Assembly: GCA_963718915.1 (NCBI GenBank)
Contig: CAVRAI010000003.1
Coordinates: forward strand, 240,001 to 272,000
Source of the DNA: an uncultured Chloroflexia bacterium
GTDB lineage: Bacteria; Chloroflexota; Ktedonobacteria; Ktedonobacterales; JADMIN01
Reading direction: 5' to 3'
Length of the DNA: 32,000 nucleotides
The number at the start of each line of letters is the position of its first letter. The stretch's first letter is position 1. A program made the translations under genes and the position numbers. This document shows positions 3,090 through 23,944 of the stretch, piece by piece. A model generated the notes under the pieces. That model had not been told where the DNA came from and ran no database searches. It worked only from the letters and a program-made list of their open reading frames with translations.

Positions 3090-4007
3090 CTACGGATCCA
3101 GCAGGTGGTGAGCCTGCCAGCCCAGCAACCCCGAACCAGTCGTGCGTGGGCCGCCCTGTAAGCGATCACCTGCCCATTCCGCAACGATGCGCAGCCACGA
3201 CTGTCTGGACGCGTCCGGTCGCTTGAAGATGACGAACAGCGACCGCCACGGCTCCTTGTTTTCATCCTCGAAAGTCCACGTGCTCCAGGCGACGGGGCCG
3301 TTCTCCTCGCCATCGGTGCGCTGCCAGCCGCCGTGCTCCAGCTGCGTGGTGTAGTGCGCGGCGAGCGTCGCGAGGTCGAGGGGAGACTCGATGCGCGCCT
3401 CCACTTCGATATTATCGCTTCCCGCGCTCCCGCCGCCCTGATATTGCTGGGTGTTTGGTGGCGGCTCGATGGGTGGAAGCATGTTGTACATCTCGCGGGG
3501 ATGTCCCATGCCGCGATGACTGCGCTGCAATTCCCGCGCACCATTAGGGGTGAGCGTGAGCTGAACGCGCGTGCGGCCATTCGGAGTCTTGTATGCAGAA
3601 ATCTGTAGCGAGGGACCGTCGTTACGATAGAGGGCGGTACCCTGGCGCGGTATCCTACCGACGATGCTTGGGCCAGATTCGAGGAAGCCGCCATGTCGCT
3701 CCGGTAAGCTTGGCTCCGGCATAATCCATCCCAATACGGCCAATTGCTCCTCGTAGAACGCGATGACCGCCTCGTCGTCTTGGTCGGTATTCAGGACGAC
3801 AATTGGTTTGTCGGCGACCAGTGAGCCAATCACACGGCTACCCGTCGGGAGCGGGATATCGCCAGGAAAGTCAGGTGGCAACGCTCCCAAGAGCAGTTGT
3901 GGCTCACCTTCGGCGGCGTAAGGATACCGCGCCATGAGCAGTGCGAGCGCCAACTCGCGGAGGCTCGCGTCATCATTCGTGGGCTGGGGATTGGTCTGCT
4001 CGTTCAT
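3090..4007 (-). CDS. Hypothetical protein, paralog B of the tandem pair
   Basis: 305-aa ORF with the same SD and leader as paralog A. It is collinear with 1941..2879 along its whole length. Confidence 0.75.
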   Translation of the reverse strand: MNEQTNPQPTNDDASLRELALALLMARYPYAAEGEPQLLLGALPPDFPGDIPLPTGSRVIGSLVADKPIVVLNTDQDDEAVIAFYEEQLAVLGWIMPEPSLPERHGGFLESGPSIVGRIPRQGTALYRNDGPSLQISAYKTPNGRTRVQLTLTPNGARELQRSHRGMGHPREMYNMLPPIEPPPNTQQYQGGGSAGSDNIEVEARIESPLDLATLAAHYTTQLEHGGWQRTDGEENGPVAWSTWTFEDENKEPWRSLFVIFKRPDASRQSWLRIVAEWAGDRLQGGPRTTGSGLLGWQAHHLLDP

Positions 4008-4047
4008 GCGATTCCTCTCTCACTGGCCGCCTGTTCCCGTGCGTATA

Positions 4048-4093
4048 CAGTACGGCATGACAACAGGATAGAGATGGTGACAGTGTACCGCAT
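4048..4093. repeat. Conserved ~45-nt intergenic motif, copy 2
   Basis: CAGTACGGCATGACAACAGGATAGAGATGGTGACAGTGTACCGCAT lies 41-86 nt upstream of the paralog B start. It differs from copy 1 at a single position. Confidence 0.8.
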
Positions 4094-4286
4094 ATCACGT
4101 TGCCATGCCGACTACACATGGACTGAAATCCTGGACTGGGGCAATTACTGGGTTTCCTCCTTCACAGTTATGGGGCGACGCAGACATAGGAAACCGGGCA
4201 GTATGTTAGACTCAGTAGCAGGTTGGCTCCCCTGCGCGCACTAGCGTTCACGGATGGTGTGGCGAATGAACGAAAGAGCAGGTGAC

Positions 4287-4694
4287 ATGATTCCACCGTT
4301 GCGGTCCGATGGTACACTTCCACCAGGCACACACCGTGCAACGCTTGCCGATGTACTAAACGCGTATCCTGCCGGGAATCAACAACGTCAGATGCTTAAC
4401 GACTCGCTCGTTCAGGTCCTGAACCAGTTATGGGGGCTGGATTCCACCTTCACCATCTTTGTAGATGGGAGTTATGTGACCGGGAAAGCAGAGCCTAACG
4501 ATATCGATCTGCTTATCATCACGATGCGCTATAATGAACTATCTTTGCAGCAGTATTTGGATCGCGTGTGTCCCGTGGAAGCGGTCTCCATGCACATCTA
4601 CGCCGAACCACGGCTACCGAATGCGATGCTGGATTTCTTCACCACGACACGCCTTGGAACCGCAAAAGGGATCATCGAGGTGACCAGCGCCTGA
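4287..4694 (+). CDS. Nucleotidyltransferase-fold (Pol-beta superfamily) protein, DUF6932-like
   Basis: The ORF is 4254..4694, and the likely start is ATG 4287 (MIPPLRSDGTLPPGTH..., a typical N-terminus for this family). The NTase signature is FVDGSYVTGKAEPNDIDLLI (GS ... DxD). The region is visibly lower in GC than its neighbours. Confidence 0.6.
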   Translation: MIPPLRSDGTLPPGTHRATLADVLNAYPAGNQQRQMLNDSLVQVLNQLWGLDSTFTIFVDGSYVTGKAEPNDIDLLIITMRYNELSLQQYLDRVCPVEAVSMHIYAEPRLPNAMLDFFTTTRLGTAKGIIEVTSA

Positions 4695-4714
4695 GGGAAA
4701 GAAGGAAAGTCATC

Positions 4715-4954
4715 ATGCGTTCCGTTCAGCCCCCCATTACCACTGAAGAGGAATATCACGGCTACCAGCGCGGTCGCGATACCCTGACGAAGGTGGTGCG
4801 AGAGCGTGAGCAACGCCTCATGGATGCGCTGGCGAGTGGGGATGAGACGCTCATCGAAGCCCGACGCTTCGAACTTTTGCATGTCTTAAATGATCGGCAG
4901 GCGATCATTGACGCAATTAAACAGTATGAACAGCATATGTCGCGAAGCGCCTAA
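4715..4954 (+). CDS. Small (79 aa) predicted all-helical protein, partner of the NTase gene
   Basis: ATG at 4715 is preceded by GGAAAGAAGGAAAG, 20 nt after the NTase stop. The sequence is charged and helical (PPITTEEEYHGYQRGRDTLTKVVREREQRLMDAL...). It vaguely resembles the N-terminal helical segment of some HigA-like antitoxins, but I see no HTH. Confidence 0.5.
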   Translation: MRSVQPPITTEEEYHGYQRGRDTLTKVVREREQRLMDALASGDETLIEARRFELLHVLNDRQAIIDAIKQYEQHMSRSA

Positions 4955-5208
4955 CTAGGTAGATCCATATAGCCAGGAATCAGGGCAATGCTTGCTGACC
5001 AGGCAGCGGCTATTGCGGCAGAACGATTCTTGATCTCTTGGGGCGTGGCGCATACTCAGGCATGCGGCAGGCTCAGCGCCACTCCAACTCTTCCATCCTC
5101 CCCCACCTCCGCAGTATTCCCTGATCTCTCACGGCGGGATGCCATACGGCTCGGAATAGCCCGCTACGGTAAACGCTATCGCCGCCTCAGTCGATTGGTC
5201 GGTATTTG

Positions 5209-5257
5209 TGCCGTGCGCTATGACAACAGGACAAAGATGGTGAAAGCGTACCGCGCT
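5209..5257. repeat. Conserved intergenic motif, diverged copy 3
   Basis: GTGCCGTGCGCTATGACAACAGGACAAAGATGGTGAAAGCGTACCGCGC is in the same orientation as copies 1 and 2. The core ATGACAACAGnAyArAGATGGTGAmAGyGTACCGC is retained. It lies 131 nt upstream of the STAND gene start. Confidence 0.65.
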
Positions 5258-5387
5258 CTGCGCCGCCTTGCTGGCCGCGCCATATCACTACATCTCATCC
5301 ATTGACTCTCAATGCGGCAGCGCATAGAATGACGACCAGGCGAGGCGTGTTATACCGCTACATAACAGGCTATCAGTAAAGAGATGA

Positions 5388-8300
5388 GTGAAGATGACTA
5401 CTCCCGCACGGCCAGCGCGCTCCCAGTCCATGCTGCGTATCTTTCTCAGTTCCACCAGCGTTGATCTGAAGGCGCATCGCGCGGCGGTGCGGCGGGTGAT
5501 CGAGACGTTCGACGAGCATCCGGTCGTGATGGAGGACTTCGGCGCGCACGATGGCGACGCCACGACCGTCTCGCTGGAGAAGCTGCATAGTTGCGATGTC
5601 TACGTGCTGCTGCTCGCCTGGCGCTACGGCACGATTCCCAACGACGATACGCTCTCGGTGACGCATCAGGAGTATCGCGCGGCAAAAGACGCCGGGATGC
5701 CGCTGCTGGTCTTCCTGGCGGATGAGGCGACCGAGCGCGACGACGGGCCAGACGCGCTCTTCCCCGCCACTGTGCGCGACGGCGACCACATCACCCAGCT
5801 ACACGCCTTCCGCAAGGAGGTTGGCGGTGACCGTGTGGCCGCATTCTTCACGACGCCCGAAAGCGTGGCGCTGGCGGTCGCGGCGGCGCTGCACCAACTG
5901 ATCCCGACGCTCAAGCCACAGGGGCCACGTCCCCCACATAAACTGGCTCCGCGCGCGCTGGAGTTCGTCGGGCGGACAAGCGAACTGGCGGAACTGTGTA
6001 ACCGGCTGCGGTCTGGGCAGAGCGTTGGCCTCTCGGCGCTGATTTCCGGGTTGGGCGGCGTGGGCAAGTCGGCGCTGGCGGCGGAGGCGCTTGCCACGCT
6101 GGCAGCGGAGCCGGACGCTTTCCCCGGCGGCGTCACCTGGGCGCGCTGCGATGGGCGCGAGGGGCTGGCTGGCCTCACCTGGCTCTACGATCAACTGCTG
6201 GCGGACTGGGGCGCGCCGCTTGCGCCGGAGCAACTGGCGCAGGCGCAGACGGCTGGCCCTGAGGCGGAGGTGGAGCTACGCGAGCGCGCGTTACAGGCGC
6301 GATCTGCGGGATGCCACGCCCGCGCTGGCGCTGCTGGATAACGTCGAGGTAGGGTTCCCGCTGGCCCGCGCGCTCGATACGCTGACGCCGCTGGGGATCA
6401 CGGCGCTGGTGACGGCGCGCCATCAGCCATCCGTCGCCCGCCTGCAACTGCTCCCACTGGATGTGCTGGATACGCCCGCCGCCGTCCAGCTCTTTGCCGA
6501 ACGCTACCGCGAGCGAGGTGGCGATTGGGACGACGCGCGTGATAGCCAAGCCGCCACCACGATTGTCGAGCAGTTGGGACGGCTGCCGCTGGCCATCGAG
6601 CTACAGGCCGCCCGCGCCGCCTTGCGCCGCTTGAGTGTCAGCCAGGTGAGCGCCGACCTGGAGCGCGACCACAGCCAGGGGCTGCTCGGCGACGCGCTGG
6701 ACGCCACCCGCAACATGCGCTACAGCTTCGAGCAGAGCCTGCGCACACTCACGCCGCTCCAGCGCACCCGCTTCGCCGCGCTGGGCTTGCCCGATGGCCC
6801 CGACTGGCCGCGTGATGTGATCGAGCGGCTACTGGCAGGCATCACGGAGGGAGGCGGCTGAAGAAGGCGATGACGAGCGCAACTGACGACGATGACGAGC
6901 CAACCGCCAGCGAGCTTGCCGCCGCCGGGGCCGATCTCGACCGCTTCGTGGCGCTCTCTCTAGTGAACCTTGCGCCGCCGGATGGGCGCGTGCGGCTACA
7001 TCCGCTGCTGCGCGAGTATGTCCACGAACTCTGGCAAAACGCGCCTGCCGACACACAGACTGCGGGGCTGCGCGCGCTGCTGGCGGGCATCGAAGGGCTG
7101 GCCACGGAGTACGTGCACGATTTCGCCGCGCTGGCCCACGAGGAGGAGATGATCGTCGGCGCGCTCGACACGGCGCAGACAGGGCAGTCAGAGCCACTGC
7201 GTATGGTCGGCATCGTCAATACACTCCTTGACTACCTGACCATAGGTGGCCACTGGCGCACAGGCATGCGGTTGTACCCATGGCAACTGGCGGCATACCG
7301 CGAGGTGGGCAACCGTAGCGGCGAAGGCACAACGCTCAACAACCTGGGCTAACTGGCCCGCAGCCTGGGCCAGCCGGAACAGGCGCGAGGCTACTACGAG
7401 CAGGCGCTCGTCATCGTGCGCGGAGGTGGGCAACGGGGCGTGGAAGGCACGACGCTCAACAACCTGGGCGCGTTTAGCCTACGGACTCGGCCAGCCAGAG
7501 CAGGCGCGCGCTTACTACGAGCAGGCGCTCGTCATCCTTCGCGAGGTGGGCAACCGTGCGATGGAGGGCACGACGCTCAACAACCTGGGCGAATTGGTCT
7601 ACGGCCTGGGCCAGCCAGAACAGGCGCGCAGCTACTACGAGCAGGCGCTGGCGATTCTCCGCGAGGTGGGCAACCGTAGCGATGGAGGGCACGACCCTCA
7701 ACAACCTGGGCGAATTGGCCCGCAGCCTGGGCCAGCCAGAACAGGCGCGCGCGCTACTACGAGCAGGCGCTGGCGATTCACCGCGAGGTGGGCAACCGTA
7801 GCGACGGAGGGCACGACGCTCAGCAACCTGGGCTGCTTGGCCCAAAGCCTGGGCCAGCCAGAAGAGGCGCGCACGCTACTACGAGCAGGCGCTGGCGATT
7901 CACCGCGAGGTGGGCAACCGTGCGATGGAAGGCACGACGCTCAACAACCTGGGCGCATTAGCCCAAAACCTGGGCCAGACCAGAACAGGCGCGCACGCTA
8001 CTACGAGCAGGCGCTGGCGATTCATCGCGAGGTGGGCAACCGTGCGATGGAGAGGCACGATCCTCAACAACCTGGGTGAATTGGCCCGCAGCCTGGGCCA
8101 ACCAGAACGAGGCGCGCACGCTACTACGAGCAGGCGCTGGCGATTCTTCGCGAGGTGGGCAATCGGGGCGTGGAAGGCACGATCCTCAACAACCTGGGCG
8201 CATTGGCCCACAGCCTGGGCCGACCAGAAGAGGCGCGCACGCTACTACGAGCAGGCGCTGGCGATTCTTCGCGAGGTGGGCAACGTGCGATGGAGGGCAC

Positions 8301-8964
8301 GATCCTCAACAACCTGGGCGAATTGGCCCGCAGCCTGGGCCAGCCGGAGGAGGCGCGTGCCTACTACGAGCAGGCGCTGGTGATTCTTCGTCAGGTCGGC
8401 AACCGTAGCGGCGAGGGCGCGATCCTCAACAATCTCGGTCTGTTGGCCCAAAGCCTGGGCCAGCCAGAACAGGCGCGCACCTACTACGAGCAGGCGCTGG
8501 CGATTCATCGCGAGGTGGGCAACCGTGCGATGGAAGGCACGACGCTCAACAACCTGGGCGCATTGGCCTACAGCCTCGACCAGCCAGAGGAGGCGCATGC
8601 CTACTACGAGCAGGCGCTCATCATCTACCGTGAGGTCGGCGACCGCAACGGTGAGGGCACGACGCTCAACAACCTGGGCGAATTGGCTCGCAGCCTCGAC
8701 CATCCAGAGGAGGCGAGCCGCTACTACGAGCAGGCGCTGGCGATCTTTCAGGAGATTGGGGAGGTGAGCAACGCGAGCGTCATCACCGAGAACATGGAAT
8801 ATCTTGCGCAAACCGATTCAGCCGCTGGCGACACATCCGACAATGGGCCAGGTGTGCCTGATGCGTACGCCGACGATATGCCTAACGCGGACCCGGTGAT
8901 ACTACAGGAGAAAGGCGAGCAGGCGACACGGCGCAAGCGGCGGTGGTGGCCGTGGGGACGATGA
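5388..8964 (+). pseudogene. Disrupted STAND/NLR-like NTPase: DUF4062 (TIR-like) N-terminus, NB-ARC P-loop, winged helix, about 12 TPR repeats
   Basis: The N-terminus RIFLSSTSVDLKAHRAAV...CDVYVLLLAWRYGTIP...SVTHQEYRAAKDAGMPLLVFL matches DUF4062. Walker A is GLGGVGKSALA and the Walker-B-like motif is LALLDNVE. RLHPLLREYV is a typical NB-ARC winged-helix motif. The 40-aa TPR units read EGTTLNNLG.LA.SLGQPEQAR.YYEQALAI.REVGNR... The coding sense hops between frames: frame 0 to 1 near 6290-6300 and back near 6816-6861. There is an in-frame TAA at 7350-7352. About 12 further single-base indels lie in 7420-8290. Confidence 0.8.
7290..8770 (+). repeat. Tandem array of about 12 x 120-bp TPR-coding units (121-123 bp where insertions occur)
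   Basis: G(A/G)GGCACGACGCTCAACAACCTGGGC recurs at about 7323, 7443, 7564, 7685, 7807, 7928, 8054, 8171, 8292, 8410, 8530 and 8650. The units are highly similar at the nucleotide level. All six frames stay open over long stretches, which generates the many overlapping ORFs in the track. Confidence 0.9.
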
Positions 8965-8995
8965 GCGACGGGCGGGCATTTTGTGGGGGTGGCGC

Positions 8996-9608
8996 GCCGC
9001 AGGCTGAGAGCCATGCGGCTAATCCTGGTCGTTCGGTATCCGCTCGATAGGCGACGTGCATACTCAATCCCAGGATTCGTAGACGTTATTAACGATGAGG
9101 CGTGAGTTGATCGAGAGGGCGCATTGCCATGAGCGAGCGTGTGTACTACCATCATTGTGTTTAGCACGACACGCGACAAGCCCGTTTTTCTCGTTGAAGA
9201 GATTGATGCGGCATTCAAAGAGGCGGCGCGCGAGATTCGTCCATCAAAAGAGCTGGCTACTGCTCGAACTGGAAACCATGCCCAATCACGTGCATCTCTT
9301 GCTGGAAAAAGCGCCGTGGGATGATCTCGAGCCGTTGGTTCGGCTATCTCAAAGGGCGCACCGCCCACACGCTGCTGGAGCGATTCCCCTGGCTGCGTGG
9401 CGACCTCAATTCCTATCCGCTTCTGGAATCGCAGTTCATCACTATACCCGGCACACTGACGAATCACTCGCCACCGTTCGCGCCTATATCCGCAACCAGC
9501 GAAAAGCTGGTGGACTGTCCGAATAATCCGAGCGAGCTGCAGACAGCATTCCAACCATCCACAGCGCTCCCTCGCCACAGGATTAGCCGCAGGGCTTCAG
9601 CCTGCGGC
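8996..9608. mobile_element. Decayed IS200-like/RAYT-like module: Y1 transposase remnant bracketed by inverted ~33-nt hairpin repeats
   Basis: The left repeat is GCCGCAGGCTGAGAGCCATGCGGCTAATCCTGG (8996-9028). The reverse complement of 9575-9608 is GCCGCAGGCTGAAGCCCTGCGGCTAATCCTGTGG. The two differ by one indel plus one mismatch over about 33 nt. Each can fold as a GCCGCAGG/CCTGCGGC-type hairpin. Confidence 0.6.
9129..9526 (+). pseudogene. IS200/IS605-family Y1 (HUH) transposase TnpA/RAYT-like, frameshifted
   Basis: Family motifs are scattered over three frames. They include IIVFSTTRDKPVFL...AAFKEAARE (frame of 9139) and ELETMPNHVHLLLE, the HUH motif, at about 9278-9307. YLKGRTAHTLLERFPWLRG lies in the frame of 9321, FWNRSSSLYP in another frame, and TVRAYIRNQ carries the catalytic Tyr at about 9485. 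At least 4 frame changes are needed to read it through. Confidence 0.65.
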
Positions 9609-9658
9609 TCGGTACCCCACACCATTTATGCCCGCGCTACATCACCTCATCTAGCTTC

Positions 9659-12208
9659 TCACGCCCAGCGCGCCAGCCCCAACTCCAGCGGATTGCTCAG
9701 CCCGGCGAAGCTCGGCGCCACCCGCACGCCATAGACCAGGCTGCCGTTGATCGGCGGCAACAGGTTCGCCGTATAGCAGTGCTCGCCGTCGGACGTCGTG
9801 CGGCTCGGCGTCATCGCCGTCACCCGGCGCTCGCGCAGATTGCCGTTCTCATCGCGCGCCGCCACCAGCTCCACCCGCACATCCTCCGGGCTGAGCAGCC
9901 CCAGTCGCACGCGCGCCTCCACCGTCACCGGATCGCCGAACGAGAGTCGGCCATCGTGCGGCCCCTCCGCGTGGATACTCACCTTCGGCCAGGCGGCGCG
10001 CACCATCCGCTTCCAGTCCGCCAGCTTGCGCGCCAGCGCGTAGCGATCCGCGTCGATCCGGCGGCCATAGGCCAGCGCGGGAACATACAATTCCTGGGTA
10101 TAGTCCTTCACCATCCGGCGCATGCTAAAGGCCGGAGCCACCGTCCGTATCGCCTCGCGCATCACCGCGATCCAGCCATGGGGCAGGTCATCGCCGCCGC
10201 GATCATAGAAGAGCGGCACAACCTGGTTTTCCAGCGTCGCATAGAGCGCCAGCGCGTCCGCCTCGTCGCGTGTGTTGTCGTCCTGATACTCACGCCGCTC
10301 GCCAAACGCCCAGCCGTTGCGCCCGTTATAGCCCTCCTCCCACCAGCCGTCGAGGATGCTGAGATTGGGCAGGCCGTTCAGGCTCGCCTTCTGGCCGCTG
10401 GTACCGCTGGCCTCGTGCGGGCGCACCGGATTGTTCAACCATATGTCGCAGCCGCTGACCAGATGCCGCGCCATATCCATGTCATAGTCTTCGAGGAAGA
10501 CGACCTTGCCGCTGAACTCTGGCTGGCGCGAGAACTCGTAGACCTGGCGGATCAGATCCTGGCCGGGTTTATCGTTGGGATGCGCCTTGCCCGCGAAGAC
10601 CAACTGCACCGGGCGGTCGGGATTGTTCAGCAGCCGCGCCAGCCGCTCGGGATCGCGGAAGATCAGCGTCGCGCGTTTATAGGTGGCGAAGCGCCGGGCG
10701 AAGCCAATCGTCAGCGCCTCCGCGTTGAGCAGCGTATGCGTCTCGCGCACCGCCGCCAGCCCCTCGCCCAGCCGCTCGCGTTGCCGCGCCAGCCGCGCCC
10801 GCGCAAAGGCCAGCAACTCCTCTTTGAGCTGGTTGTGCGCGGCCCACAGCTCATCGTCGGGGATCTCGCGCGCATGCTCCCAGAGCGCCGGATCGTCCAG
10901 GTGGGCGTACCAGTCTTTGCTCAGATGGCGCTGGTAGAGCGTATCCAGCGCGGGCGCTATCCACGTGGCGGTATGCACGCCGTTAGTGATCGAGGTGATC
11001 GGCGTCTCGTCTACCTCCAGCTCCGGCCAGAGGAACTGCCACATCCGGCGCGAGACCTCGCCATGCAACTTGCTGACGCCATTGCGCTGCGTCGAGAGCC
11101 GCAGCGCCAATATTGTCATGCTGAAGGCCGAGCCCCAGCCGTTCTCTTCGCGGGCAAGGTCGTGGAAGGAGTCGCGGTCGAGCCGCAGCTGCGGCCAGTA
11201 GTCGCCGAAATAGGTATCCACCAGCTCGAAGTTGAAGGCGTCGTTGCCCGCGGCCACGGGTGTGTGCGTGGTGAAGATGGCGTTGGCGGCGGCGATCTCG
11301 CGCGCGACCTCGAAGCTGATATCCAGCCCCTGCACCAGTTCGCGGCAGCGCTCCAGCCCCAGAAAGGCCGCGTGGCCCTCGTTCATATGCCAGACCATCG
11401 GGTCGATGCCCAGCGCCCGTATCGCGCGGACGCCGCCGATGCCCAGCATGATCTCCTGCGCGATACGCATCTCATGGTCGCCGCCATAGAGCCGCGCCGA
11501 GAGTACGCGGTCGCCAGGCGTGTTCGGCTCGACATCGGTATCCATCAGGTAGAGCGGGATGCGCCCCACCTGAATGCGCCAGACCTTGGCGTAGACCTTA
11601 CGCCCCGGCAGGTCCACGCTAATCATCATCTCGTGCCCGTCGGGGTCCAGCGCGGGCTGCGCCGGAACCTGCGAGAAGAGCAGCTTTTCGTAGATGGCCT
11701 CCTGCTCGCCCTTCGCGTTGATGCGCTGGCGAAAGTAGCCCTGCGGATAGAGGAATCCTACGCCGATGAAGGGCAGCCCCAGGTCGCTCGCCTCTTTGCA
11801 GTGGTCGCCCGAAAGGATGCCCAGGCCGCCGGAATAGATGGGCAGCGATTCGTGCAGCCCAAACTCGGCGGAGAAGTAGGCAATCGTGTGGCGCGCCTCA
11901 TCCGGGAAAGTCTGGCTGAACCAGGTCGTCTCGGGATGCATATAGGCGTCGAAGTCGGCGCAGACGGCATCGTAGCGCGCCAGGAAATCGGCATCGTCGG
12001 CGAGCGCCGCCAATCGCTCCGGCTCAACCTCCAGCAGCACGCGCACGGCGTTGTGCTCACTCGTCTGCCAGAGTTCCTGGCTGATCGTGGCGTAGAGGCG
12101 TTGCGCGGGGGGATTCCAGGTCCACCAGAGGTTATAGGCAAGTTCGCGCAGACGGTGAATGCGTTCGGGTATCTCAGGAAAAACGGCCATACGACCGAGA
12201 ATCTTCAC
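9659..12208 (-). CDS. glgP: Alpha-glucan (glycogen/maltodextrin) phosphorylase, GT35
   Basis: 849-aa ORF with a GTG start preceded by AAGGAG. The N-terminus FPEIPERIHRLRELAYNLWWTWNP is typical of the DUF3417-type alpha-glucan phosphorylases. The PLP-lysine region reads EASGTSGQKASLNG. The antisense ORF 9779..12223 is an artefact. Confidence 0.95.
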   Translation of the reverse strand: MKILGRMAVFPEIPERIHRLRELAYNLWWTWNPPAQRLYATISQELWQTSEHNAVRVLLEVEPERLAALADDADFLARYDAVCADFDAYMHPETTWFSQTFPDEARHTIAYFSAEFGLHESLPIYSGGLGILSGDHCKEASDLGLPFIGVGFLYPQGYFRQRINAKGEQEAIYEKLLFSQVPAQPALDPDGHEMMISVDLPGRKVYAKVWRIQVGRIPLYLMDTDVEPNTPGDRVLSARLYGGDHEMRIAQEIMLGIGGVRAIRALGIDPMVWHMNEGHAAFLGLERCRELVQGLDISFEVAREIAAANAIFTTHTPVAAGNDAFNFELVDTYFGDYWPQLRLDRDSFHDLAREENGWGSAFSMTILALRLSTQRNGVSKLHGEVSRRMWQFLWPELEVDETPITSITNGVHTATWIAPALDTLYQRHLSKDWYAHLDDPALWEHAREIPDDELWAAHNQLKEELLAFARARLARQRERLGEGLAAVRETHTLLNAEALTIGFARRFATYKRATLIFRDPERLARLLNNPDRPVQLVFAGKAHPNDKPGQDLIRQVYEFSRQPEFSGKVVFLEDYDMDMARHLVSGCDIWLNNPVRPHEASGTSGQKASLNGLPNLSILDGWWEEGYNGRNGWAFGERREYQDDNTRDEADALALYATLENQVVPLFYDRGGDDLPHGWIAVMREAIRTVAPAFSMRRMVKDYTQELYVPALAYGRRIDADRYALARKLADWKRMVRAAWPKVSIHAEGPHDGRLSFGDPVTVEARVRLGLLSPEDVRVELVAARDENGNLRERRVTAMTPSRTTSDGEHCYTANLLPPINGSLVYGVRVAPSFAGLSNPLELGLARWA

Positions 12209-21440: not shown

Positions 21441-21626
21441 CCGATGCCTCCTCATCTCGCGAACCAGAGCAAGCCATCAACCTGTCACTTCCTTTACGGT
21501 AGCACAATATGGGCCTGTGTGCGCTGACAACCGGGAAGCACAGGATGTTTCCAAAGCAGACTGATTCATGTAGACTGGAATTTAGGATAATATTGCTGCT
21601 GATACCAGGATTATGAGAGGTTGCGC

Positions 21627-22541
21627 ATGGCCATCCCCGACTTTCAATCGCTTATGCTGCCTGTTCTCACATTTCTCGCGGATGGGCAAGAACACGCGAT
21701 GCGCGAAACAATAAGCGCTCTTGCCGATATGTTTGGACTCACTGATGCGGAGCGGGCAGAGACGTTATCAAGTGGGCAGCATACCTTCGACAATCGGGTG
21801 CGCTGGGCCGTTGTATACATGAAGCAGGCGGGACTACTTGAGTCTGCGCGCCGGGGAGTCTATCACATCACGGAACGCGGCATGGAGACGCTCAGCCAGA
21901 ATCCTGCGCGTATAGATATCAATTTCCTGGCCCAATACCCTGAATTCAACGAATCCAGAGCCGGATCTCGCAGACAGCGCAACGGACATGTGGTTCCTGA
22001 AGCAATAGATCAAGATGCTCAGCAAACGCCTGAAGAGCGTCTGGAGGATGGCTACCAGCGCATACGACTGGAGTTGGCTCAGGAACTCCTCGCCCGGATC
22101 ATGGGGTGTTCTCCCAGCTTTTTCGAGCGGTTGGTCGTCGAGTTGCTCGTAAAAATGGGATACGGTGGCTCACGGAAGGATGCGGGGGAAGCAATCGGAC
22201 GCAGCGGGGACGAAGGAATTGACGGTATCATCAAAGAGGATCGGCTTGGGCTGGATACGATTTATATCCAGGCGAAGAGATGGCAGGGAACTGTTGGCCG
22301 ACCAGATATTCAGCGGTTTACGGGTGCGCTGATGGGGCAGCGGGCGCGGAAGGGCATATTCATCACCACTTCAGACTTCTCCCGCGAGGCGCGCGAGTAT
22401 GTCAGCCATATTGACAGCAAGATTGTCCTTATAGATGGTGAGCAGCTAGCTCAACTCATGATTGATTATGGCGTAGGTGTTTCTGTAGCTACCATCTATG
22501 AGATCAAAAAGGTAGATTCCGACTACTTCTCAGAGGTTTAA
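21627..22541 (+). CDS. mrr: Mrr-family type IV (modification-dependent) restriction endonuclease
   Basis: ATG 21627 has GAGAGG 6 nt upstream. The Mrr_N winged helix reads IPDFQSLMLPVLTFLADGQEH...RVRWAVVYMKQAGLLES. The catalytic core is FERLVVELLVKMGYGG...GDEGIDGIIKEDRLGLDTIYIQAKRW. The gene is visibly lower in GC than flanking genes. Confidence 0.9.
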   Translation: MAIPDFQSLMLPVLTFLADGQEHAMRETISALADMFGLTDAERAETLSSGQHTFDNRVRWAVVYMKQAGLLESARRGVYHITERGMETLSQNPARIDINFLAQYPEFNESRAGSRRQRNGHVVPEAIDQDAQQTPEERLEDGYQRIRLELAQELLARIMGCSPSFFERLVVELLVKMGYGGSRKDAGEAIGRSGDEGIDGIIKEDRLGLDTIYIQAKRWQGTVGRPDIQRFTGALMGQRARKGIFITTSDFSREAREYVSHIDSKIVLIDGEQLAQLMIDYGVGVSVATIYEIKKVDSDYFSEV

Positions 22542-22701
22542 CGCCTGTTCTGTCTGAGTGGTTTTTGCGTGACTCCTTCCCCCCTTGCCTCTTTCCGACA
22601 CGGGGAGATACGAATACTCTGCGAACTCTCATCACGTCGTAGTATATATAGGAAAATGCGACGCGAGGCCTAAATCCTGGATGAAAGGAGGGCTGCTCTA
22701 T

Positions 22702-23370
22702 ATGGCGCAGATAAAGCGTGCAAATGCGGCGGCGCGCCCATCCTGGACCACCGCGCAGACCGTCGAGGCTCTCCGCGCTTACGGCATCGATTATCTGGCT
22801 GCAAGCCACAATGACGACCGTGCCTCAGGCAAAGACAAGATGTCCACGCGCCCGCCAATCTCGCAATTGCTTCGGGCGCTGGCATGCTCTCATGAGCCGC
22901 GAGTGCGGGATGCCATGATCGGTCTGCTGCTACTTCACCCCGAAATCGCCCGCGATGTCGTTCGTGTTGTCTCGCGGGCACGCCTCCAGGGCGATGACGA
23001 ACTGGCCGAACAAACAATCACGCTGGCGCTGGCAGCAATTTACCTTCAGCGCATCTGGTGGTTTCAATTAGCGCTTACCGATGGGGCTTCCCCCGCGCTC
23101 GATGAAGCTCTTTTCGCGCCATGGTGGCTGGAGCGGAACCTACCGCCACCGTCCATCGGCTACGGCGAAACGGGATTGCGGTGGCTGGCAACCTACGAGC
23201 AGGAGCGGACAGGTGTCGCGGCGAACTTTGCCGGTGACTGGCAGAATCAGGCGCGCCATGTCATCACACAGGGTCGGACTCCTTCAGCGGTCGAACAGCG
23301 GCCTGCCGATGCGTCGCTACCATTGGACCGGCAAGCGCTTCGGCGGATGTTTTATGTCAGGACAGGGTGA
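22702..23370 (+). CDS. Hypothetical protein, upstream partner of the NTase-fold gene
   Basis: The likely start is ATG 22702, with AAAGGAGGG upstream. The 222-aa product is helical and I see no recognisable HTH or catalytic motif. Confidence 0.55.
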   Translation: MAQIKRANAAARPSWTTAQTVEALRAYGIDYLAASHNDDRASGKDKMSTRPPISQLLRALACSHEPRVRDAMIGLLLLHPEIARDVVRVVSRARLQGDDELAEQTITLALAAIYLQRIWWFQLALTDGASPALDEALFAPWWLERNLPPPSIGYGETGLRWLATYEQERTGVAANFAGDWQNQARHVITQGRTPSAVEQRPADASLPLDRQALRRMFYVRTG

Positions 23371-23383
23371 AAGAGAGCACGCC

Positions 23384-23944
23384 ATGAGCTTCCGTCCGGA
23401 TGTGTCACGTGATGATATCGAGCGATTCCTCCAGCAGTTTGGCCAGCTAAGCCAGCAGTCAGGACGCCTGTATCTTGCCGGTGGGGCAGAACTTGTGCAC
23501 GGCGGACTCCGTGGCGAGGGAGCTACGACGGTTGACATCGATCTGCGCCTGGATGTCAGCGATGAATCTGCCGCCGAGACGCTTATCCGGCAGCTTATGC
23601 GTCAACTTGGCATCAATGTGGAGCTTGCGTCGCCTGCTGACTTTATCCCGCTGCCTTCGGACTGGCAAACACGCTCGCCGTTTGTTGGGCGTTACGGAAA
23701 CACCGATGTCTTCTATTTCGATTATTACGCCCTTGCGCTCTCTAAAATCGCGCGGGGTACCAGCCGTGACCTGAGTGATGTGTTATTGCTCGCTCAGAAT
23801 GGGCTGATTCAGCGCGAGGATCTTGAGGCTGCCTACCAGCAAATTCTGCCGCAGCTCGGCCATGGCCGATTCTTCAACATTGATCCAGCGAAATTCGCGG
23901 AGCAGTATGCGGCAACCCTCGCTCTATTGCCTGACCCGAACTAA
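23384..23944 (+). CDS. Nucleotidyltransferase-fold protein (DUF6036/AbiEii-like)
   Basis: ATG 23384 lies 13 nt after the upstream stop. The NTase signature is LAGGAELVHGGLRGEGATTVDIDLRL. The C-terminal part reads DYYALALSKIARGTSRDLSDVLLLAQNGLI, which is typical of this NTase group. Confidence 0.65.
   Translation: MSFRPDVSRDDIERFLQQFGQLSQQSGRLYLAGGAELVHGGLRGEGATTVDIDLRLDVSDESAAETLIRQLMRQLGINVELASPADFIPLPSDWQTRSPFVGRYGNTDVFYFDYYALALSKIARGTSRDLSDVLLLAQNGLIQREDLEAAYQQILPQLGHGRFFNIDPAKFAEQYAATLALLPDPN

Follow-up and report, generated by a model that had tools for sequence, protein, structure and literature searches.

Has an immune-receptor gene died, or has its sequence been put together wrongly? 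This question is raised by a locus on the forward strand (5394-8964) of the window, the 32,000-nucleotide stretch of DNA analyzed here, which comes from a high-GC member of the Ktedonobacterales (Chloroflexota). We find that the locus encodes a DUF4062 domain, a STAND P-loop NTPase in which every NB-ARC-type motif is present, and twelve TPR units of 120 nt each. It belongs to the bacterial NLR-like anti-phage sensors, in the class with NIR(DUF4062)-STAND-TPR architecture. Its reading frame is interrupted about 16 times overall, almost always by single-base indels. Reading it at full length requires the repair of two changes of frame (a +1 insertion at 6302 and another shift near 6858), a TAA stop codon at 7350-7352, and 12 insertions and 2 deletions in the repeat array; the repaired protein is 1188 aa long.

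An earlier note on this DNA had described the same open reading frames (ORFs) and frames, which three-frame translation reproduces, and had read the gene as either recently dead or live and mis-assembled. Exactly these two alternatives remain. A full-length product is impossible from the sequence as written (two shifts in the NTPase module, one stop, and 14 array indels). However, "recently dead" is not the better-supported branch, as the lesion pattern fits consensus errors that merge variants.

Domain architecture of the repaired protein

The tripartite architecture of DUF4062, STAND NTPase, and TPR domains is real: Pfam, a family profile, TRF, and the alignment of repeat units recover its parts. 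The present analysis demonstrates the identity of the gene, its domain order, its motifs, and its catalytic Glu (Table 1). NADase activity and its trigger are extrapolated from homologues.

The 5' ORF runs uninterrupted in frame 0 from 5388 to 6341. The gene more likely starts at the ATG at 5394 than at 5388, and the same start is present in the 90%-identical JGI contig L082. A Pfam profile search places DUF4062 (PF13271) at aa 17-99, scoring 80.4 bits (gathering threshold 24.7; E = 1.1e-22) and spanning positions 1-82 of the 82 in the model, in line with the earlier assignment. The DUF4062 domain of KpSwz (PDB 10wc) also matches segment A (E = 3.2e-6). In this alignment, E95 falls on KpSwz position 97, the E97A site of the deposited mutant, and it is invariant in nine homologues. 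The catalytic Glu is essential in both KpSwz (E97) and PsAvs2 (E108) (bioRxiv 10.64898/2026.05.01.722283; 10.64898/2026.09.04.749371). From KpSwz, PsAvs2, and TEP1, we infer that the domain would cleave NAD+ by hydrolysis into ADP-ribose and nicotinamide.

An AF2 model of the domain shows five beta-alpha-beta repeats over residues 18-174, at a mean pLDDT of only 66. Foldseek matches are weak and mixed with other Rossmann-like folds (RPS4/RRS1 TIR, E = 5e-3, TM 0.6; L6 TIR; nucleoside 2-deoxyribosyltransferase), and they give noisy support, the query being a two-domain model of medium confidence. The TIR-like character proposed earlier is borne out by three 2026 preprints, discussed below, that show DUF4062 to be a TIR-like NADase. 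Upstream, the predicted promoter-like site and its surroundings (5227-5343) are about 94% conserved in L082. With this site kept, the 5' ORF could still be expressed, as had been suggested.

Within the NTPase (NOD) module, the motifs GLGGVGKS, LLDNVE, TARH, GRLPLAIE, and RLHPLLRE occur in order and are invariant or nearly so across 10 sequences. The first aligns with the APAF-1 P-loop, and RVRLHPLLREY aligns with AfsR "rYRFHDLVRLYA". The earlier NB-ARC assignment stands at the level of profiles and motifs but not at Pfam's own threshold. Pfam NB-ARC (PF00931) scores 13.3 bits (E = 0.05), short of its cut-off of 23.5, and covers the P-loop region only; we therefore base the assignment on the family profile. 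The family NOD profile matches AfsR (8k60) at E = 3.9e-19 over profile positions 4-371, from P-loop to winged helix, APAF-1 at E = 1.3e-10, and plant NRCs weakly. It aligns the segment B stretch to the AfsR NOD, and NCBIfam AfsR matches segment B as well (E = 2.4e-10). Segment A carries a Pfam AAA_16 match (E = 1.3e-9; 40.1 bits against a cut-off of 32.6). NACHT (PF05729) is absent from the gene at E <= 1 in the Pfam search, and no PADLOC-DB v2 model, Avs models included, is hit at E <= 0.1 by the N-terminal 636 aa of the repaired protein.

The repeats form a single TRF array (7299-8744, period 120, 12.0 copies, 84% matches). Pfam TPR_12 and TPR_10 match it down to E = 7e-41 (TPR_12), and the gene also has a weak TPR_NPHP3 match. 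Each unit after repair is a near-perfect 40-aa TPR. Central units u3-u9 (7540-8388) are mutually 85-92% identical in nucleotides; the units share a perfect consensus, and their variation clusters at a few positions. The array is of the "highly internally conserved" kind, for which diversification by repeat reshuffling has been proposed. The 3' end of the gene is complete, since the same basic, Trp-rich tail ends four homologues (L004, L008, L009, and L013).

Table 1. Features of the locus and its immediate surroundings (positions in the window).
Feature	Position	Strand	Evidence
DUF6932 nucleotidyltransferase-like gene, upstream	4254-4694	+	Pfam DUF6932, E 3.6e-22
80-aa ORF, upstream	4712-4954	+	Open reading frame
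Predicted sigma-70-like promoter-like site, TTGACT-17-TAGAAT	5302-5330	+	Consensus scan, 10/12 matches
Segment A, frame 0: DUF4062/NIR domain (fold about 5436-5912) and NTPase start	5394-6302	+	Pfam, PDB, AF2
Putative catalytic Glu codon, E95 counted from GTG 5388; motif SVTHQEY	5670-5672	+	Alignment to KpSwz
Walker A/P-loop GLGGVGKS	6048-6071	+	Direct reading; G, G, GK invariant in family alignment
Frameshift 1, one extra A: CAGGCGCG[A]TCTGCGG	6302	+	In-frame CGT CTG in L082 (blastn)
Segment B, frame 1: Walker B to winged-helix start	6304-6858	+	Three-frame translation
Walker B LLDNVE	6325-6348	+	Invariant in family alignment A3
TARH sensor motif	6412-6423	+	Invariant in family alignment A3
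GRLPLAIE (GLPL-like)	6577-6600	+	Invariant in family alignment A3
Frameshift 2 (-1 or +2) and frame-1 stop TGA 6859-6861	6856-6861	+	Three-frame reading
Segment C, frame 0: winged helix and helical linker up to TPR-array N-cap	6861-7298	+	Three-frame translation
MHD-like RVRLHPLLREY in winged helix	6987-7019	+	R, R, HPLL invariant in A3
Twelve 120-nt (40-aa) TPR units	7299-8748	+	TRF, unit alignment and repair, Pfam
In-frame TAA, unit 1	7350-7352	+	Other units have GAA, GCA, TGC, or CTG there
Capping helix and C-terminal tail RRKRRWWPWGR (8929-8961), stop 8962-8964	8749-8964	+	Three-frame reading
IS200/RAYT-like Y1 transposase remnant, downstream	8986-9618	+	Pfam Y1_Tnp, E 1e-4; NCBIfam IS200, E 1e-3

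Homologues and neighborhood

The search for intact homologues returned proteins of 946-1100 aa (L003, L004, L008, L009, L012, and L013), and such homologues occur in Ktedonobacterales MAGs. The family is large: grouping at 50% identity gives 75 clusters (E <= 1e-30), many with a length of 900-1250 aa. The single relative at 90% identity, L082 (1.3 kb), covers frameshift 1 only and diverges after NVEV. A genome scan found no locus above 80% identity; in a metagenome scan, relatives reached at most 77% identity among the matches listed, with no independent near-identical copy there. Several family members are disrupted, by a DDE_3 IS insertion (L001), an in-frame stop (L005), or frameshifts (JGI metagenome contigs L075 and L077). 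These lesions are impossible as sequencing errors and indicate that real inactivation is common in the family.

The upstream neighbors (4254-4954) are context outside the gene and lie in a low-GC (53%) stretch of the GC profile; PADLOC has a match for the DUF6932 gene in its candidate system PDC-M63A (E = 2.3e-12). Downstream, the RAYT-like remnant sits between inverted repeats (8986-9027 and 9578-9618) and can be read only across three frames (1->2->0->2). An Mrr type IV restriction enzyme is encoded 12.7 kb from the gene, and the remaining neighbors are metabolic or transport genes. At L001, TIR_2 genes flank the homologue.

Origin of the frame breaks

Reading frame 1 runs to the stop at 6859-6861, frame 0 resumes from about 6861, and the frame then changes repeatedly through the repeats. 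The extra A at 6302 lies outside any homopolymer, at a synonymous Arg third position where homologues have CGT or CGC. Frameshift 2 lies within an acidic linker and cannot be assigned to an exact base because the linker varies in length (DNA alignment with L003, L004, L073, and L074). In the array, indels were placed by aligning the 12 units to the four in-frame units. This yields 12 one-base insertions (7418, 7471, 7678, 7753, 7800, 7875, 7979, 7997, 8052, 8108, 8120, and 8241) and two one-base deletions (after 7436 and after 8283). A recurrent G insertion is restricted to u4-u8, the mutually most similar central units, and 8109-8162 and 8230-8283 are 100% identical, extra G included.

On balance, we lean toward the frame breaks being artefacts of assembly or consensus, with the gene in the living cell intact or nearly so. 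Errors of assembly at variable positions of the repeats explain their pattern no worse than real decay does. An assembler or polisher might have merged non-identical copies, be they neighboring repeat units, paralogues, or strain variants, and, where a position varied, either written its two alleles one after the other or left it out. Consistent with this, about 15 single-base indels stand against one stop and no larger deletion, while the promoter and the C-terminal tail are kept and the array still has a length of 12 units. For six of seven insertion types (11 of 12 events), the added base matches the alternative allele found at the adjacent column elsewhere in the array, and both deletions fall on polymorphic columns; the naive P of 0.0017 for this allele doubling rises, however, to 0.02 by types once alignment freedom is modeled by simulating random insertions with re-alignment. 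The confinement of the recurrent G to the most similar units points the same way, as does the placement of the two shifts outside the repeats, one at a synonymous position and the other in a linker of variable length. Profiles cover at least 12 single-copy genes in the window completely and without a frameshift, and the adjoining RAYT-like gene is likewise damaged by frameshifts only. RAYT-like genes are usually multi-copy. Downstream of the shifts there is no excess amino acid divergence, although the relative-rate test has low power (SE about 0.04) and is too weak against a recent real inactivation. A homologous array in L002, a MAG whose contig names suggest long-read assembly, has units of impossible length, 113-116 nt, in a sequence that is conserved in other respects; this cannot reflect real decay. 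Against an artefact, the TAA at 7350 is a substitution rather than an indel, most indels lie outside homopolymers, and other family members carry lesions that no sequencing error could produce.

Other sources of error were considered and rejected. Random sequencing error across the assembly is excluded by the full-length profile matches of at least 12 other genes, and homopolymer-type long-read error is ruled out for most sites, where indels lie outside homopolymers. A purely context-specific base-calling error for the recurrent G fails at u10, which shares the 50-nt context of u5-u8 and lacks the insertion. A diversity-generating retroelement was also discarded, as no reverse transcriptase was found among the window ORFs scanned.

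Genuine decay is plausible, if short of probable. Here the sequence would be correct and the NIR-NB-ARC-TPR sensor inactivated by the TAA, the first frameshift, or both. The array would have kept recombining, copying one frameshifted unit into five neighbors by gene conversion or unequal crossing-over, while decay also reached the RAYT-like element in this dispensable island; the longest possible product would be a 315-aa fragment with NIR and Walker A. The TAA is explained this way, as are non-homopolymer indels in an assembly that is base-perfect elsewhere in the window. So are the identical extra G, which in u5-u8 sits inside 54-nt segments sharing 96-100% identity, a result expected of concerted evolution, the unaffected u10 in the same sequence context, and a compensating +1/-1 pair 18 nt apart (7418/7436). 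Disruption affects about 8 of 12 close homologues and is unambiguous in some (L001 and L005), which fits the birth-and-death turnover expected of immune receptors, and the dN/dS of 0.25 for segment A and the 5' ORF relative to L082 shows a lineage under selection until recently. However, decay would have to account for at least 11 independent indels against a single stop, without a larger deletion or a measurable excess of amino acid change, and for an insertion bias of about 13:3. In bacterial pseudogenes, a deletion bias is usual and an insertion bias unusual. The inserted bases also coincide with alternative alleles of neighboring columns, and indel-only damage extends to the neighboring gene.

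In two further readings, the locus as written still serves the cell. It is very unlikely that a broken copy is kept as a silent reservoir of TPR cassettes for intact paralogues, or that its 5' ORF (5394-6341) makes a stand-alone NIR NADase protein from the conserved promoter. The conserved promoter-like site and 5' region in L082, the dN/dS of the 5' ORF, and array units with perfect consensus and variation at few positions would suit either role, as would the two or three paralogues per genome in related MAGs and the action of small NIR proteins in defense (Vesta VstA). Yet the last 13 residues of the 5' ORF are out of frame, Walker B and any sensor are missing from it, and dN/dS over 10% divergence mostly reflects time before any inactivation. 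Decoding of the frame changes in vivo, by programmed ribosomal frameshifting or transcriptional slippage, has a negligible chance of being right: protein signal is conserved across frames, but it would have to cover about 16 shifts, some forward and some backward, as well as a stop codon, and intact homologues manage without recoding. Programmed frameshifting was rejected because slippery heptamers and homopolymer runs are absent from the lesion sites.

Returning to merged copies, we regard it as rather doubtful, though worth stating, that the indels are footprints of real heterogeneity, in which TPR-array alleles of the population or of paralogues, differing at hypervariable positions, were merged in the consensus. 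If this were true, an NLR-like receptor would have been caught diversifying its sensor by repeat reshuffling, a process that has been put forward for bacterial NB-ARC/TPR proteins whose repeats are highly conserved, but has not been seen at work. In a variant of the idea, a copy with a broken frame would still be trading cassettes with live paralogues. Were the heterogeneity biological, the locus would be a convenient one in which to follow how receptors diversify in a natural population. Immune receptors that are rich in near-identical repeat units are exactly the kind of gene that assemblies corrupt. Thus, "pseudogene" calls in this family (the present locus, L002, and L014) need read-level checks before immune-gene decay is concluded from them.

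Possible mechanism and known relatives

The earlier note had held that a DUF4062 effector on a STAND-TPR protein was uncharacterized. This no longer holds, because 2026 preprints characterize DUF4062 as a TIR-like NADase: as Swarozyc, with cryo-EM structures (bioRxiv 10.64898/2026.05.01.722283), as Evangelion (bioRxiv 10.64898/2026.06.25.731849), and in PsAvs2, a DUF4062/NIR-STAND-TPR Avs protein that is a terminase-triggered NADase (bioRxiv 10.64898/2026.09.04.749371). The last also reports that NIR occurs on further NLR-like proteins, which carry repeats of various kinds. If homology to PsAvs2 and other STAND proteins is a guide, the C-terminal TPR array would bind an invader protein. Binding would release the NB-ARC-type NTPase for nucleotide exchange and oligomerization, bringing the N-terminal TIR-like DUF4062 domains together.

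PsAvs2, from Pseudomonas chlororaphis, resembles the present gene in its N-terminal DUF4062 with a catalytic Glu, its central STAND NTPase, and its C-terminal TPR-type repeats. Its logic would be expected to apply here too, with sensing of a phage protein leading to oligomerization, NAD+ hydrolysis, and abortive infection. The two share the effector-STAND-repeat layout, whereas the N-terminal 636 aa of the present protein lack a PADLOC Avs match and its NOD is of AfsR/APAF-1 (NB-ARC) type. Its sensor consists of regular, near-identical 40-aa TPR_12 units rather than the Avs2 terminase-binding domain, its host belongs to the Chloroflexota, and the present copy is frame-broken.

Swarozyc (KpSwz, PDB 10wc/11cq/11cv), Evangelion, Vulcan, and Vesta are DUF4062 effector systems as well. 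KpSwz has a homologous DUF4062 (E = 3.2e-6) with the catalytic Glu in the same place, and its trigger is the phage portal. These systems differ in pairing DUF4062 with small auxiliary, HEAT, or phosphatase partners, without a STAND NTPase. Eukaryotic TEP1, NWD1/2, NPHP3, and TTC41 share the order of N-terminal DUF4062/NIR, STAND NTPase, and repeats, and NPHP3 and TTC41 also use TPR_12-type repeats. According to the 2026 preprints, however, the eukaryotic NIR-NLR-like proteins use NACHT NTPases, for which the present gene gives no signal.

The best structural relatives of the NOD are AfsR and related actinobacterial NB-ARC-TPR proteins (PDB 8k60, 8jke; NCBIfam FxSxx_TPR, HaaT). AfsR likewise has TPR repeats after a NOD that matches from P-loop to winged helix (E = 4e-19), but it is a transcription regulator with an N-terminal SARP DNA-binding domain, whereas the present N-terminal module is probably an NADase effector. 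Filamentous bacteria, with Chloroflexi listed, have NB-ARC/TPR NLR-like proteins whose repeats show high internal conservation (Dyrka et al., bioRxiv 10.1101/2020.01.06.895854). They resemble the present gene in phylum, NB-ARC/TPR composition, units that are 80-90% identical, and variation at few positions. Their N-termini are amyloid (BASS) or Bell-domain signaling modules, whereas the present one would be an enzymatic NIR effector. The locus alone adds little: it would extend the newly characterized NIR(DUF4062) NADase effector to an AfsR/APAF-1-type NB-ARC-TPR receptor family of filamentous Chloroflexota, and it provides a repaired 1188-aa sequence, along with intact homologues such as L004.

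Gene layout and module identity

A single gene is covered by six ORFs that overlap one another and occupy three frames. Frame 0 runs from the gene start to ...ALQAR, a frame 1 stretch extends from LRDATPALALLDNVE to ...ITEGGG*, and frame 0 resumes at ...KKAMTSATDDDDEP, taking in RVRLHPLLREY and the beginning of the first TPR unit. The next interruption is an in-frame TAA (7350-7352), beyond which the frame switches every 40 to 120 codons. In the raw pieces, Pfam detects DUF4062 (E = 1.1e-22), as the earlier note had anticipated, together with AAA_16 (E = 1.3e-9) and strong TPR_12/TPR_10 matches. Since ORF tiling, three-frame reading, Pfam matches, and the TRF array agree, a DUF4062-NTPase-TPR gene readable only by changing frame is confirmed. 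From the 90%-identical JGI metagenome contig L082, the conserved start is predicted to be ATG 5394, not GTG 5388; the candidate promoter site is also conserved in this contig.

Features of the gene under study and its surroundings (window positions)
Feature	Position	Remarks
24-nt motif ATGACAACAGGAYARAGATGGTGA	2930-2953, 4057-4080, 5220-5243 (+)	three same-strand copies
Duplication of about 170 nt	2830-2990 and 3957-4110	contains two motif copies
DUF6932 nucleotidyltransferase-like gene	4254-4694	upstream, low-GC; matches PADLOC candidate defence system PDC-M63A
80-aa ORF	4712-4954	after DUF6932 gene; no family match
Candidate promoter site	5302-5330	TTGACT-17-TAGAAT
DUF4062-NTPase-TPR gene	5388-8964 (+)	
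TPR array (TRF)	7299-8744	single array, 120 nt x 12.0 copies
Basic Trp-rich tail	8929-8961	
IS200/RAYT-like Y1 transposase remnant	8986-9618	imperfect inverted repeats 8986-9027 and 9578-9618
Mrr type IV methyl-directed restriction enzyme, intact	within 21621-23944	PADLOC mREase_IV, E = 2e-95; 12.7 kb downstream of gene under study

The N-terminal domain matches the solved DUF4062 structure of the Swarozyc protein KpSwz (E = 3.2e-6), with E95 (the Glu in SVTHQEY, codon 5670-5672) aligned with the catalytic E97 position; this Glu does not vary among homologues. An AF2 model of medium confidence has five beta-alpha units, as expected of a DUF4062 domain, and a fold search returned weak matches only, to plant TIR domains and a nucleoside deoxyribosyltransferase. 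The NB-ARC module proposed in the earlier note is recovered by a profile from ten family members, which matches the whole AfsR NOD (E = 3.9e-19) and APAF-1 (E = 1.3e-10), and by conserved motifs (Walker A, Walker B, TARH, GRLPLAIE, and RLHPLLRE), but not by Pfam NB-ARC, where it scores 13.3 bits against a cut-off of 23.5. Pfam gives no NACHT signal in the NTPase, and none of the PADLOC defence models match the repaired N-terminal 636 aa. Because of these matches and absences, the NTPase is filed, on sequence grounds, as NB-ARC-type STAND and is assigned to neither Avs nor bNACHT.

Relatives and genomic surroundings

In large databases, the nearest proteins are short and many are visibly out of frame. 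The earlier note had suggested a search for intact orthologues; the genome scan found intact homologues, genes of 946-1100 aa with the three modules alike and a C-terminal RRRWWPW tail (L003, L004, L008, L009, L012, and L013), carried by Ktedonobacterales and Chloroflexota MAGs. The top matches assign the window to a high-GC lineage of the Ktedonobacterales. An exhaustive HMMER search, clustered at 50% identity, gave 75 clusters at E <= 1e-30 and 2663 at E <= 1e-10, many of them 900-1250 aa long with a match spanning all 300 N-terminal residues. Among 12 close relatives, about 8 are disrupted, and in L082 (1150-1325) similarity is lost abruptly after NVEV. The homologous genes of Microflora-Danica-type MAGs (L002/L006, 10011-10700; L014, 10001-11950) are likewise full of frame changes; contig names suggest that these MAGs are long-read assemblies.

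In all full-length members, the last TPR gives way to a low-complexity linker and then to a closing basic Trp-rich tail, (K/R)RRRWWPW(G/Q)R (as in the window, L004, L008, L009, and L013). Possible roles include membrane contact, nucleic-acid contact, or localisation. In the MAG MFD05502.bin.2.92, the homologue is followed, a few kb further on, by two genes with TIR_2 domains (L001, 12856-15960); therefore, in that genome, the family member sits beside further NAD-linked immune-type genes.

GC falls to 53% at 4001-5000, against 63% for the window. The DUF6932 gene and the 80-aa ORF may be an acquired two-gene module. Further downstream, after Mrr, a DUF6036 nucleotidyltransferase ORF overlaps a 261-aa ORF of another frame, and this stretch is a second small defence-like cluster. 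The defence-island context raised in the earlier note is thus only weakly indicated: the PDC-M63A match and Mrr count towards it, and it goes no further because all other genes serve metabolism or transport. The ATGACAACAGGAYARAGATGGTGA motif (0 copies expected by chance) lies twice inside a duplication that takes in the first codons, and the sequence before them, of two tandem paralogous ORFs on the minus strand (1941-2879 and 3090-4007). The third copy precedes the DUF4062 gene by 150 nt, and L082 conserves it. A common regulatory or mobile sequence is one possibility.

Origin of the frame breaks

The damaged stretch is limited to about 6302-9400. Alignment of the 12 TPR units against the four in-frame units of exactly 120 nt reveals 12 one-base insertions and two one-base deletions in the array; once repaired, each unit is a near-perfect 40-aa TPR (REVGNRAMEGTTLNNLGxLAxSLGQPExARxYYEQALAIx). 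Two frameshifts affect the NOD: a surplus A at 6302 (CAGGCGCG[A]TCTGCGG, by comparison with L082), and a shift at about 6856-6861, within an acidic linker of varying length among homologues. The product after repair is 1188 aa. The RAYT-like gene, included in the damaged stretch, is readable only across three frames, over which its motifs (IIVFSTTRDKP, MPNHVHLLLE, LKGRTAHTLLERFPWLRG, and YIRNQ) are scattered; like the NLR-like gene, it carries indels only. A general assembly error across the window is excluded, because many other genes show complete profile coverage (beta-glucosidase, glycogen phosphorylase, two MFS transporters, flavoprotein reductase, Mrr, histidine ammonia-lyase, aminotransferase, and several others).

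Both alternatives of the earlier note, a dead gene and a mis-assembled live one, still stand. We lean slightly towards a local artefact of assembly, and regard true pseudogenization as a serious but less probable explanation. Real decay would account for the TAA, the non-homopolymer indel contexts, the presence in u10 of the u5-u8 context without their surplus G, and a +1/-1 pair lying close together. It also has unambiguous precedents among relatives: a DDE_3 transposase (IS) inserted after residue 466 of the L001 homologue (9533-10400), an in-frame nonsense codon after TARH in L005 (about 11005), which has just two TPR units, and frameshifts in common between the JGI metagenome contigs L075 and L077. 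However, the damage consists almost entirely of +/-1 indels, strongly favouring insertions, with a single stop and no larger deletion, while the candidate promoter, the count of units, and the C-terminal tail are preserved.

Further points favour an artefact. The inserted base is the adjacent-column base of other units in 6 of 7 insertion types (11 of 12 events), as in GAA[C]GAGG (units CAG or GAG), GGA[G]AGG (GGA or GGG), and CA[C][G]CTAC (CAC or CAG); random insertions, simulated and re-aligned likewise, give this allele-doubling pattern in 40% of cases, from which P = 0.02 follows. Both deletions fall on polymorphic columns, and the recurrent insertion is found only in those central units that resemble each other most and would suffer most from cross-mapping. 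The two NOD shifts occur at a synonymous site and in the length-variable linker, and amino-acid identity to outgroups past the shifts equals that of intact relatives, in a low-power test. Furthermore, every TPR unit of the L002 array measures 113-116 nt, 4-7 nt short, with the remaining bases matching the consensus. Real decay is not a credible source of such units; the family is therefore hard to assemble, and public-MAG arrays of the L002/L006/L014 type point to systematic consensus errors. If the merged variants were real heterogeneity, the sensor array would be undergoing real diversification, which is the most interesting reading left.

Comparison with known systems

The description in the earlier note holds, but its claim that DUF4062-NB-ARC-TPR is an uncharacterised system does not. 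Three 2026 preprints present DUF4062 as a TIR-like NADase in anti-phage defence: Swarozyc, with cryo-EM structures and activation by portal (bioRxiv 10.64898/2026.05.01.722283), the DUF4062 system Evangelion (bioRxiv 10.64898/2026.06.25.731849), and the DUF4062-STAND-TPR protein PsAvs2 (WP_273864396.1; bioRxiv 10.64898/2026.09.04.749371). Because NB-ARC/TPR repeat proteins have also been described already, the architecture is of a known kind, and the gene is a new member of a class already characterised, probably mis-assembled and, if not, decayed. From these homologues, we infer a mechanism in which ligand binding by the sensor would lead to NTP-dependent oligomerisation, activation of the NIR (DUF4062) domain, and depletion of NAD+. 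In filamentous bacteria, including Chloroflexi, NB-ARC/TPR NLR-like proteins have units 80-90% identical to one another, and repeat reshuffling has been proposed as their diversification route (bioRxiv 10.1101/2020.01.06.895854). The central TPR units of the window gene, at 85-92% identity among themselves, share this high internal conservation.
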